Shown: piece by piece, positions 1-3,000 of the stretch
Layout: every line of letters begins with the position of its first letter
Numbering within the stretch: position 1 is the first letter of the stretch
Assembly: GCF_000026545.1 (NCBI RefSeq)
Contig: NC_011601.1
Length of the DNA stretch: 64,000 nucleotides
Reading direction: 5' to 3' (one strand)
From: Escherichia coli O127:H6 str. E2348/69
GTDB lineage: Bacteria; Pseudomonadota; Gammaproteobacteria; Enterobacterales; Enterobacteriaceae
Position numbers: made by a program

Positions 1-3000
1 CCCTCGCCACCTCTGATGTGTCAGGCATCCTCAACGCACCCGCACTTAACCCGCTTCGGCGGGTTTTGTTTTTTCCTGGCATTCTGGTTTACAATTCGCA
101 CGCCAGCCTGAACAACTGGCACCTGCTGCGCCAGCAGAGACAACCGATGGCGCACGATACCAAATTACACAATTCTGATGATTCTGCCGTCTTTGCCAGC
201 AGGCACGGGCGGCGTTCCCGCACTTTCAAATCTGACTGGTTCCAGCATCCCCCATGCACTGAAGAACAGGCCGAGTGGCTAATTCAGTGCTACCGCAGAC
301 ACGGATACGAGATTAAGAAAGCCCTCAGCCTCGATTATCGTCACTGGATAATCTCCGTCAGGCTTCCTTACTCCGAACGACCACCGCGTCCGTCCCGCAC
401 ATTCCAGCAACGCATCTGGAGGTAACGTGCGGGTATTACTTCGACCTGTTCTGGTACCGGAACTCGGGCTGGTGATCGTTAAGCCGGGCCGTGAATCCAT
501 GCCGGTATTCCACAATACCCGGGTACTGGTGGAGCCGGAACCGAAAAGCATGCGTAATCTGCCGTCCGGGGTCGTTCCTGCCGTTCGCCAGCCGCTGGCG
601 GAGGATAAATCATTACTGCCATTTTTCAGCGACGAACGAGTGATTCGTGCTGCTGGTGGCGCTGGCGCATTGTCTGACTGGTTACTGCGCCATGTTAAAT
701 CCTGCCAGTGGCCACACGGTGATTATCACCACAGTGAAACCGTCATTCACCGTTATGGTACCGGCGCAATGGTGTTGTGCTGGCACTGCGACAACCAGCT
801 GCGCGACCAGACCTCCGAATCACTCGGGCAACTTGCTCACCAAAACCTGTCTGCATGGATGATTGACGTCATACGCCATGCAATGAATGGCTCGCAGGAA
901 CGGGAATTATCGCTGGCTGAATTATCCTGGTGGGCGGTCCGCAATCAGGTGGCGGACGCGCTACCGGAAGCGGTATTACGTCGTTCGCTGGGGTTGCGTG
1001 CGGAAAAAATCCGCTCAATGTACCGTGAAAGCGACATCGTACCGGGAGAGCAGACCGCCACCAGCATACTGAAACAGCGCACAAAAAATCTTGCGCCGCT
1101 GCCTCACGCCCACCAGCAACAGAACCCACCACAGGAAAAGACGGTGGTCAGCATTGCCGTTGATCCTGAGTCTCCGGAATCTTTCATGAAACGACCTAAA
1201 CGTCGCCGCTGGGTTAACGAGAAATACACACGCTGGGTGAAGACACAGCCGTGTGCGTGTTGTGGTAAGCCAGCCGACGATCCCCATCACCTGATTGGTC
1301 ATGGTCAGGGCGGAATGGGGACAAAATCTCACGATATTTTCACGCTACCGCTGTGTCGGGAGCATCACAACGAGCTTCATGCGGATCCGCTGGCGTTCGA
1401 AGAAAAGCATGGTTCTCAGGTTGATTTAATTTTTCGTTTTCTTGATCACGCCTTTGCAACTGGCGTGCTTGGGTAAAAGAGGTGACTGATGCTCATAGAT
1501 TTGGTTTTACCTTACCCGCCGACGGTGAACACTTACTGGCGACGCCGTGGCAGCACATATTTTGTATCAAAAGTCGGTGAGCGTTATCGCCGTGATGTGG
1601 CGCTTATTGTTCGCCAGCAGCAACTGAAATTAAACCTGTCCGGAAGGCCGGCAATAGAAATTATTGCAGAGCCACCGGATAAGCGCCGTCGTGACCTGGA
1701 CAATATCCTGAAGGCACCACTGGATGTACTGACGCATGCGGGGCTGCTCATAGACGACGAGCAGTTTGATGAAATTAATATTGTGCGCGGTCAGCTTGTT
1801 CCTGGTGGGCGGTTGGGGATAAAAATCACAGAACTGGAGTATGCATGAATAACCAGTATTTACAGTTTGTTCGTGAGCAACTCATGATTGCCACCGCCGA
1901 TTTGAGTGGATCAACAAAAGGGCAGCTTGAGGCCTGGCAGGAGAATGCCATGTTTGATACAGGGCGTTACAGGCGTAAAAAAATCCGGTACCGCGATGAA
2001 GTGACTGGAAAAATGATAACGCGGGATAATCCACCAATCCCGGGAAAGCAATCGCTGGCGAAGGGGGCGTCAATTCCTCTCGTCAGTCCGGTTGAGTTTT
2101 TGACATCATCGTGGCGGCGGGCTGTTCTGTCTCTTGAAGAACATCATAAAGCCTGGTTGTTGTGGTGTTACAGCGGGAGTATTTGTTGGGAATATCAGAT
2201 CGCGATAACACAGTGGGCGTGGAATGAATTTAATACTCAATCCGGTACCAGAAAAATTGCTGGGAAAACGCAGGAACGCCTGAAAAAATTAATCTGGCTG
2301 GCGGCGCAGGCAGTAAAAGCAGAACTTTTTGGTGGGGAAGGTTATGAATATCAGGAGCTGGCATTACTGGCGGGAGTGACAACTAAAAACTGGTCCAAAA
2401 CATTTACTCGTCACTGGGTTGCAATGAAACACATTTTTCACCGACTGGATAGTGAGGCTTTATTATTTGTAATGAGAACACGTTCAAAACAAAAGGCGGC
2501 ATTTTCAAAGCAAAGTGTTGCAAAAGTAGATTGAAAGGCATATATTTCATGCAAATCTGATATTTTGCCGATTTTGTACGTGATGGCAAAATCAAACAAA
2601 ACCCGCCCACAAGCGGGTTTTTTTGTGCCACTTATCTCGGATAGACATGGTGAATGCGCTGGTGGAGGAGATAAGGGTGATTTTTGTATGCTTGCAACAT
2701 TGATTTCGTAACGTTATTATCCTGCGCCCGGCCCTTTAGCTCAGTGGTGAGAGCGAGCGACTCATAATCGCCAGGTCGCTGGTTCAAATCCAGCAAGGGC
2801 CACCAACCGCCACTAGCCATCAGGAAAGAGCGTCAACCCTTTAAGTTGAGTGTGCGAGGTTCGAGTCCCCGGTGGTGGTCCATTATCGGTATTCTGCGTT
2901 GTTAGCTCAGCAGGACAGAGCAATTGCCTTCTAAGCAATCGGTCACTGGTTCGACTCCAGTACAACGCGCTACACTTATTTTCCCGGCTCGCTTTTGCGG

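Follow-up and report, generated by a model that had tools for sequence, protein, structure and literature searches.

The elements that follow the Q gene in the stretch of DNA analysed here (the window, 64,000 nucleotides) very probably constitute the ordinary late-gene switch of PP6, a phage-82-like prophage of EPEC E2348/69. By database comparison the window matches E2348/69 at 100% identity and lies in prophage PP6, and its coordinates equal those of NC_011601 minus 1,440,000. Directly observed are the promoter, pause and terminator sequences with their exact spacing and conservation, the family to which the Q protein belongs and the 5′ end of an in vivo RNA at 2553 (the minimum over RIL-seq reads). 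Pausing, loading of Q and antitermination in PP6 would be expected from the biochemistry of phage 82. The type of module is textbook lambdoid biology, to which the PP6 switch adds one real, ordinary case; the start of the PP6 late operon is now fixed in a reference EPEC strain.

The late promoter, its pause element and its terminator

The Q gene and the elements of the promoter and leader are arranged as follows.

1845–2534, plus strand: Q antiterminator gene of the Q82 family, 229 aa, full length (E2348C_1407; PF06323, E = 3.5e-91)
2518–2523, plus strand: −35 element TTGCAA of pR′, within the last Q codons (promoter scan; TTGCAAAA is invariant in 8 relatives chosen by BLAST)
2541–2546, plus strand: −10 element TATATT of pR′ (promoter scan; the relatives carry CATATATTT or CATACATTT there)
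2553–2555, plus strand: predicted transcription start at A2553, which opens an AAA run (7 nt 3′ of the −10 element; the relatives all have AAAT)
2558–2569, plus strand: predicted sigma70-dependent pause element, with TG at +6/+7, a −10-like TATTTT at +9 to +14 and GCC at +15 to +17 (read from the sequence; TG and TAT are invariant in the relatives)
2577–2578, plus strand: predicted pause at +25 (T) and +26, with a G at +24 and an AT-rich stretch at +18 to +25 before them (placed from the published positions at 82 pR′)
2562–2592, plus strand: optional upstream leader hairpin, AUUUUGCC...GGCAAAAU (−8.2 kcal/mol, z = −2.35)
2598–2624, plus strand: intrinsic terminator tR′, with a hairpin at 2598–2621, a G+C core at 2602–2617 and a T7 run at 2618–2624 (folding and our own scan)
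2639–2653, plus strand: read-through segment with a predicted MgrR-complementary site, GGAUAGACAUGGUGA (PMC8550237, tables S3 and S7)

The promoter pR′ has the form TTGCAA-17-TATATT and agrees with the consensus at 9 of 12 positions. It lies at 2518–2546, where the preliminary description had placed it, and the TGA stop codon of Q (2532–2534) falls within its spacer. In the phage 82 record the −35 element (TTGCAAAA) is spaced from the Q stop codon just as it is in the window. A transcript from +1 at 2553 begins AAAUCUGAUAUUUUGCCGAUUUUGUA.

The closest counterpart of this promoter is 82 pR′, for which the published features are a −10-like element of the extended kind with its last base at +14, followed by GCC (+15 to +17), AT-rich sequence from +18 to +25, a U at +25 and a pause at +25/+26, a G at +24 being implied by the result of an insertion at +18 (PMC5001585). 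The sequence from 2553, AAATCTGATATTTTGCCGATTTTGTA, has all the described features with base-for-base spacing and a start within an AAA run; the match was judged from this published verbal description together with a proxy, PhiR47_2, whose Q gene is 98.3% identical to phage 82 Q. From +1 to +17 the proxy is identical to the window, and it differs by a few bases in the promoter spacer and from +18 to +26.

The Q protein is likewise of the phage 82 type. It has the family and length of phage 82 Q (229 aa in both), to which it aligns free of gaps with 76% identity, and is 73% identical to phage 434 Q. Its family, PF06323, is named Q82, and the mechanism of this family was still an open question in 2022 (PMC9388147). 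A search of solved structures with the Q sequence returned a chance match only (E = 0.012), and Q82 is the only Q family that has no sequence match among them. The Q-binding element of phage 82 is located between −31 and +30 (PMC4914094); at 76% identity, recognition of pR′ by the Q of the window is suggested by the co-location and conservation of the two.

The tR′ hairpin, AAAACCCGC-CCACAA-GCGGGUUUU, begins 52 nt past the −10 element and 45 nt past the predicted start. An energy calculation for the terminator, proposed in the preliminary description, gave −12.5 kcal/mol (z = −3.9), and none of 200 shuffles was equally stable. A consensus scanner put this hairpin on the minus strand only; it missed the plus-strand terminator because it extended the stem through A-U pairs, thereby consuming the T-run, and our own scan, in which the T-run was allowed to overlap the A-U pairs, found tR′ on the plus strand. 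The upstream hairpin of the leader was considered as a conserved element and rejected. Comparable hairpins of other sequence occur in several classes of relatives, whereas in the isrJ class the hairpin is weak (z about −0.3 to −1), and when the leaders of the relatives were folded it was absent from phage 434 and from two further relatives (L043 and L078).

By analogy with phage 82, RNA polymerase carrying sigma70 would initiate constitutively at A2553, from a promoter that overlaps the end of Q. The retained sigma70 would bind the extended −10-like sequence TGaTATTTT (+6 to +14), which together with GCC (+15 to +17) would bring about a scrunched pause near +25/+26. Without Q, the polymerase would escape from the pause and then stop at the hairpin and U7, so that a leader with a predicted length of about 72 nt would be released. 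A protein of the Q82 family would bind DNA at its site within the promoter region, engage the paused complex and travel with the polymerase. The Q-modified polymerase would then pass tR′, the terminator of the tRNA cluster and the IS to reach the esterase, lysis and structural genes.

Conservation, downstream genes and RNA from the locus

The segment from −35 to +11 is nearly invariant in the 8 relatives chosen by BLAST, which come from four host genera (E. coli, Klebsiella, Enterobacter and Salmonella). This near-invariance of the promoter and pause motif contrasts with the Q proteins of the relatives, the identity of which falls to 57–63%. Among the unique relatives, 101 of 108 have a terminator-like site, in most cases with its end between +52 and +78, and 34 distinct hairpin sequences make up these sites; the inner leader sequence varies freely. 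The module occurs in 913 of 5,426 complete E. coli genomes, about a sixth, and several hundred complete genomes of E. coli carry the same 141-bp stretch at an identity of at least 95%. The signature TTGCAAAA-N-CATATATTT-N-AAATCTGATAT is usable to spot late promoters of the Q82 type.

Downstream of tR′ the window carries the following features.

2730–2970, plus strand: tRNA cluster in the late transcription unit, with CAT, doubtful TTT and TCT anticodons (ARAGORN)
2986–3011, plus strand: second intrinsic terminator, 3′ of the tRNAs (−14 kcal/mol, z = −3.5)
3100–4649, minus strand: ISEc13, IS4 family, with a Tn5-like transposase (8-bp target duplication CTGTGCGG at 3092–3099 and 4650–4657)
5019–8190, plus strand: first late genes, namely an esterase-like protein (5019–6872), a holin (7023–7238) and a lysozyme (7657–8190) (Pfam SASA, DUF1737, DUF6645; P21-type holin; phage lysozyme; RefSeq annotation)

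Within the tRNA cluster Rfam confirms only the tRNAs at 2730–2802 and 2896–2969. The late genes lie downstream of pR′ on the same strand. The preliminary description held the switch to be intact in spite of the IS, and at the level of sequence this stands: ISEc13 spares the switch and interrupts no late protein gene. The insertion has not left the late region whole, however. When the IS is removed in silico its flanks join as a continuous STnc100-like sequence, and ISEc13 splits an sRNA gene of the STnc100/PasD type. The five Pas sRNAs published for E2348/69 were also considered as candidates for the window leader itself, and each lies elsewhere or in a different prophage.

RNA from this locus is found in published Hfq RIL-seq data, in which the most 5′ read of the Q-tRNA intergenic RNA lies at NC_011601 position 1442553, equivalent to 2553 in the window (PMC8550237, tables S3 and S7). 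This boundary is the minimum over 29 chimeric fragments rather than a mapped primary 5′ end, and as such it agrees with the start near 2553 that had been proposed. The 29 chimeras are with MgrR (p = 2.3e-29, activating condition), a further 234 fragments of this RNA were recovered on Hfq, its longest U-tract is 7 and the read starts of the RNA as RNA1 range from 2553 to 2672 (PMC8550237). As RNA starts extend to 2672 and the MgrR site lies at 2639–2653, a fraction of the transcripts extends beyond tR′ in cultures without deliberate induction. In culture the level of Q mRNA is very low (baseMean about 6 in a published E2348/69 dataset; PMC8550237). With RNA found 3′ of tR′ while Q mRNA is low, it follows that either tR′ is leaky or a subpopulation of the cells is induced. 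A terminator some 50 nt downstream of the promoter, as proposed earlier, is accordingly present and stably folded, but the term ‘strong’ then applied to it was an overstatement.

Other readings of the module

It is barely credible that pR′ is a chance pair of hexamers and that the hairpin serves as the terminator of the early-right (Q) operon, or as a bidirectional one. Hexamer pairs alone are common, there being 7 promoter-like sites in 3 kb compared with 2.8 ± 1.9 expected, and the tR′ hairpin is symmetric, with an A-run as well as a T-run, and is listed by the scanner on the minus strand. The 46-nt family motif that spans −35 to +11, however, is present as one copy in the 64-kb window and in 0 of 100 shuffles at up to 3 mismatches. 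It is also nearly invariant across genera despite being non-coding past the stop codon, the spacing of the phage 82 pause element is matched base for base, and the predicted +1 coincides exactly with the boundary of the in vivo reads. It is improbable that the module, though present in PP6, fails to work as a switch there, whether the reason be a mismatch with Q, a Q that is not expressed or a block of late expression by the 1.55-kb IS. Such a failure would be consistent with the low level of Q mRNA and with the mosaic nature of PP6, in which a second Q gene, of the Q21 family, and three genes on the opposite strand lie upstream of the Q82-family gene; comparison of the promoter with that of the phage 82 proxy, moreover, shows 8 differences over the 35 positions that run from the −35 element to +1. 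Against this stand a full-length Q that aligns with phage 82 Q without gaps, the maintenance of the 141-bp stretch in so many E. coli genomes and an IS with a clean target duplication and no hit on a late protein gene. In lambdoid phages, Q-modified polymerase passes terminators over many kilobases, which counts against a block by the IS.

A further proposal would add to the function of the switch. The leader, alone or with its read-through extension, may also be a functional Hfq-associated RNA, acting in trans as an sRNA or serving as a sponge or target of MgrR, and this we regard as unlikely. The leader is built like an Hfq-binding sRNA, in that an A/U-rich linker joins a 5′ hairpin to a terminator that has U7, and the recovery of the intergenic RNA on Hfq, in chimeras with MgrR and otherwise, points in the same direction. 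The Rfam isrJ model scores above its threshold on Q82-type leaders in five relatives, the window leader being a weak relative of these. IsrJ affects invasion in Salmonella (PMC2330248), and a precedent for a pR′ leader that acts as an sRNA is given by StxS of Stx1 and Stx2a phages (PMC7547250). The RIL-seq profile of an sRNA, mostly as RNA2 and with several mRNA partners, is nevertheless not that of the window RNA, which has the single partner MgrR (29 fragments), a fraction as RNA2 of 0 and an occurrence in one condition only (PMC8550237, table S5). In addition, the MgrR site is downstream of tR′ and outside the 72-nt leader, the window RNA is absent from the eight accessory-genome sRNA candidates of the RIL-seq authors, and the free variation of the inner leader in relatives is as expected with selection on the promoter, pause element and terminator only. 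It is distinctly unlikely that the leader and its read-through extension belong with Salmonella IsrJ and, more distantly, IsrK to a widespread lineage of Q82-type pR′ leaders and engage Hfq and MgrR in EPEC. If true, this would link a prophage late promoter via MgrR to host envelope and virulence regulation.

Comparison with known late promoters and leader RNAs

Taken as an ordinary late-gene switch, the PP6 module shares with phage 82 a short leader that ends at an intrinsic terminator. The inner-leader hairpin and the terminator hairpin of the window differ in sequence from their phage 82 counterparts, and in the window the lysis genes are separated from tR′ by tRNA genes, an sRNA gene and an IS. 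The logic is also that of pR′/qut/tR′ in lambda, where a constitutive promoter follows Q, a sigma70-dependent pause occurs close to the promoter, Q is loaded and the leader is terminated, and the pR′/qut/tR′ interpretation in the preliminary description is borne out with one refinement. The PF06323 Q, the 82 pR′ pause features and the conserved module assign the switch to the phage 82 type, and membership of the lambda type was rejected. The Q of lambda belongs to the unrelated family PF03589, whereas the window Q matches PF06323 only; lambda pauses at +16/+17 with a −10-like element at +1 to +6, whereas that of the window is at +9 to +14; and the lambda leader, the 194-nt 6S RNA, is about 2.7 times as long. 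An antisense promoter like paQ (CII-activated, and annotated in phage 434) was also considered for the sequence TTGC-N6-TTGC on the minus strand at 2510–2523 and was rejected, as this pattern has 2 matches in the window compared with 5 expected and no −10 element was found at a lambda-like spacing from it.

StxS resembles the window RNA in that a constitutive late promoter yields a transcript terminated close by in lysogeny, an Hfq-associated by-product of the antitermination system. Its leader of 258 nt is cut by RNase E to 74 nt, unlike the window leader, the predicted 72 nt of which would result from termination. StxS acts as an sRNA, whereas in its chimeras with MgrR the window RNA is always in the first, target-like position.

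Among RNA families, the weak Rfam matches of the leader to amino-acid operon leaders (Phe, Trp and Leu), OrzO-P and RNAI were set aside; all are far below the gathering scores and arise because of a generic hairpin-plus-terminator shape. The similarity to isrJ (RF01393), the family of the Hfq-binding sRNA IsrJ of Salmonella Gifsy-1, is more specific. The consensus of this family starts with UGUAAAUCUGAUAUC, and late promoters of the Q82 type have this sequence as their +1 and pause motif. At 2550–2622 the window leader reaches 24.4 bits, below the gathering score of 37, with both UGCAAAUCUGAUAUU and the terminal hairpin and U-run aligned, the former in agreement with the 5′ consensus. In five relatives (L007, L008, L010, L018 and L020) the model scores 57–64 bits directly 3′ of Q82-family Q genes. 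The window leader thus shares with isrJ its 5′ end, its length (about 72–75 nt) and its terminal hairpin, and differs from it in the sequences of the middle hairpin and the terminator. In Gifsy-1 IsrJ follows an anti-repressor gene, whereas the window leader follows Q; the Gifsy-1 isrJ promoter nevertheless retains the 3′-terminal 17 nt of a Q gene of the Q82 type. Comparison of these sequences indicates that the Rfam isrJ family models the terminated leader of Q82-type late promoters, and the reading of IsrJ-like ‘sRNAs’ in prophages may change with it.

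Architecture of the region

Three assemblies of enteropathogenic E. coli O127:H6 E2348/69 match 1845-5018 with 100% identity. The supplementary gene table of PMC8550237 places E2348C_1407 at NC_011601 1441845-1442534, three tRNAs at 1442730-1442972 and E2348C_1409 at 1445019-1446872; the window coordinate is therefore the NC_011601 coordinate minus 1,440,000, and the region is part of prophage PP6. The 229-residue Q product matches Pfam PF06323 (E = 3.5e-91); of the three families of Q proteins, which are unrelated to each other, this one has been named Q82 (PMC9388147). A gap-free alignment of this protein with phage 82 Q gives 76% identity over the full length, and the Q82-like protein of phage 434 shares 73%. 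A sequence search of solved structures with this protein gave no match. DUF968 and RusA genes (Pfam) lie upstream of Q. PP6 also contains another antiterminator gene, a member of the Q21 family (PF06530, 173 aa), outside the window at 966-1487 of L004. This gene precedes the start of the window by approximately 2.7-3.2 kb; three opposite-strand genes, hokD and the Q82-family gene lie downstream of it. PP6 is therefore a mosaic with two unrelated Q genes.

Features of the region (position; strand; feature)
1845-2534; +; Q gene, TGA stop at 2532-2534
2518-2523 and 2541-2546; +; late promoter pR', TTGCAA, 17-nt spacer, TATATT
2598-2621; +; terminator tR' hairpin, AAAACCCGC-CCACAA-GCGGGUUUU, with a T run of seven at 2618-2624
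3100-4649; -; ISEc13, Tn5-like transposase, 8-bp target duplication CTGTGCGG
downstream of Q; same strand as Q; tRNAs, esterase-like gene, P21-type holin, lysozyme

The preliminary description had proposed a promoter overlapping the Q stop codon, and hexamers with 9 of 12 consensus matches are indeed present there, the stop falling inside the spacer. A scan of 1500-4500 returned seven promoter-like hexamer pairs against 2.8 +/- 1.9 expected. The pair alone is not significant, and the case for pR' therefore rests on context and comparison. The 46-nt family motif (-35 element to +11) occurs once in the window and in none of 100 shuffles, with up to three mismatches allowed. The intrinsic terminator proposed downstream is borne out by its hairpin energy of -12.5 kcal/mol (z = -3.9; 0/200 shuffles equally stable). 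A consensus scanner placed this hairpin on the - strand only, because it extended the stem through A-U pairs and left too few T for the tail; our own scan, in which the T run may overlap A-U pairs, gave the + strand terminator. These results support the proposed pR'/qut/tR' arrangement, refined to the phage 82 type, and the region as an ordinary, widespread late switch of this type. The pause, Q loading and Q dependence at pR' are biochemistry that we infer.

ISEc13 is situated between the terminator of the tRNA cluster (2986-3011) and the esterase-like gene. The switch and the late protein genes are thus left uninterrupted, in agreement with the earlier view that the switch is structurally intact despite a downstream IS. 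Rfam places an STnc100 match at 4620-4796 (75.5 bits) with a weak 5' piece at 3048-3177. Removing the IS and one duplication copy in silico creates the junction GGTGAATCCCCCTGTGCGGAGGGGC, which aligns with the conserved 5' stem of the STnc100 matches of two Klebsiella phages. ISEc13 accordingly splits an STnc100/PasD-family sRNA gene (3048-3099 and 4650-4796, + strand) in this stem, and the interrupted copy is probably inactive. Antisense to the STnc100-like gene, in its 3' part, lies E2348C_1409.E2348C_1408.IGR (4797-4978, -), an Hfq-bound sRNA candidate already published for E2348/69. This candidate has 10 partners, among them the cfa 5'UTR (767 chimeras), and its homologues in EHEC are EcOnc08/21/42.

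Several smaller sites were observed nearby. The end of a second promoter-like site, TTGCAA-17-TATTAT (2692-2720, +), is 10 nt away from the first tRNA. In Stx2 phages the surrounding 2680-2730 has an approximately 88% conserved counterpart upstream of ileZ, and the site could give Q-independent tRNA expression. For the middle tRNA-Lys (TTT; 2807-2882, +) there is an ARAGORN call and an annotation in NC_011601. This tRNA has no Rfam tRNA match at E <= 1, is missing from the RefSeq annotation of LT827011, and may be degenerate. A CII-box-like TTGC-N6-TTGC (2510-2523, -) overlaps the pR' -35 element on the opposite strand, its equivalent being annotated as paQ in a phage 434 record. It was rejected as a paQ-like site, with two matches in the window against five expected and no -10 element at lambda-like spacing.

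Transcripts in published RIL-seq data

The Hfq RNA-RNA chimera (RIL-seq) data of E2348/69 contain a + strand RNA, E2348C_1407.tRNA_28.IGR, joined to the core sRNA MgrR in 29 chimeric fragments (p = 2.3e-29) under the activating condition only (PMC8550237). For this RNA the columns 'start of RNA1 first read' and 'start of RNA1 last read' give 1442553 and 1442672, which the table legend defines as the first nucleotide of, respectively, the most 5' and the most 3' read (PMC8550237). The most 5' read, a boundary that is not a mapped primary end, begins at window 2553, exactly the predicted +1, where a transcript start had been anticipated. Such agreement would be hard to get by chance. The longest U-tract of this RNA is seven, as in tR' (PMC8550237).

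Read starts extend to 2672, the predicted MgrR site (2639-2653) lies past tR', and Q mRNA was low in these cultures (baseMean ~6; PMC8550237). Some transcripts therefore pass tR' without deliberate induction, through either a leaky terminator or a few induced cells, which suggests that tR' is not completely tight.

The leader and the isrJ family

Folding of the 78 nt that begin at +1 gives two elements, a first hairpin (2562-2592) and the terminator (-23.3 kcal/mol, z = -2.85). Counterparts of the first hairpin (+ strand), with other sequences, occur in several classes of relatives, and none in phage 434 and two other loci. In an Rfam search of the leader, no family reached its gathering value. 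Among sRNA families isrJ (RF01393, the Salmonella Gifsy-1 IsrJ sRNA) matches best, with 24.4 bits against a gathering value of 37 and an end-to-end alignment over 2550-2622.

The isrJ consensus begins with UGUAAAUCUGAUAUC, the +1 and pause motif of Q82-type promoters, and the model scores 57-64 bits in five relatives, directly 3' of Q82-family Q genes. In Gifsy-1 (L131; isrJ/IsrK stretches 2501-2607 and 1655-1775) the stop of the anti-repressor gene anrP is directly followed by ATTGCAAAACTGGATTAA, whose codons (IAKLD-stop) are the end of a Q82-type Q gene. The isrJ promoter keeps the last 17 nt of such a gene, and a canonical promoter, pause motif and terminator follow; the Q82-type late promoter here is therefore canonical, and IsrJ is its leader. 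IsrK lies 3' of the Q82-family Q gene that Gifsy-1 itself carries, and AAATCTG is all that it has in common with the motif. From the consensus, the five relatives and the Gifsy-1 context, Rfam isrJ therefore models the terminated leader of Q82-type late promoters. The window leader is a diverged relative of this family.

A literature search on IsrJ found no paper stating that it is a Q82-type late promoter leader. The promoter of IsrK has been described as regulated by antitermination, and phage 82 as producing a short RNA from its late promoter (PMC7547250). The window RNA is never the sRNA-like partner in the RIL-seq data (PMC8550237), and its leader was rejected as a Pas sRNA, not being among them. 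The published PasB (NC_011601 1466260-1466305, - strand, PP6) falls by offset at approximately 26260-26305, among structural genes.

Conservation and comparison with phage 82

In eight relatives chosen by BLAST (phages of E. coli, Enterobacter, Klebsiella and Salmonella), TTGCAAAA and CATA-A-TT-ATG-AAAT-TG-TAT are nearly invariant from the -35 element to +11, a mostly non-coding stretch, while identity of the Q proteins falls to 57-63% over the C-terminal 150 residues. Scanning viral contigs with the pR' motif gave more than 80 further loci. Motif invariance in this larger set exists by construction and only its terminator statistics are informative: a hairpin and T run occur in 101 of 108 unique sequences (each with at least 200 nt of transcribed region), nearly all ending at +52 to +78, with 34 distinct hairpin sequences. 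Retention of structure but not sequence is the pattern predicted for a terminator under selection. The 141-bp stretch 2500-2640 is covered to at least 80% in 913/5,426 complete E. coli genomes, and the element is therefore common.

The pause-inducing -10-like sequence of 82 pR' is nearer to TATAAT than that of lambda and includes an extended -10 (PMC5001585). An insertion at +15 parts it from the discriminator (PMC5001585), so the element ends at +14. Positions +15 to +17 are GCC, +18 to +25 are AT-rich, and the paused RNA ends with U at +25, a further pause occurring at +26 (PMC5001585). When one base is inserted at +18, the pause end becomes G (PMC5001585), and +24 is therefore G. If +1 is set at A2553, seven bases downstream of the -10 element, the transcript reads AAATCTGATATTTTGCCGATTTTGTA, with TG at +6/+7, TATTTT at +9 to +14, GCC at +15 to +17, and GATTTTGT at +18 to +25, which includes G at +24 and T at +25. 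All features of the published description are thus found in the window, the comparison being with a verbal description and not a sequence. The predicted +1 lies within an AAA run, consistent with the slippage at the phage 82 late promoter named in the title of a paper cited there.

The phage 82 record stops at the Q stop codon and carries TTGCAAAA at the same distance from the stop as the window. PhiR47_2, whose Q gene is 98.3% identical to that of phage 82, served as its proxy: +1 to +17 are identical to the window and the next nine bases agree at 7/9.
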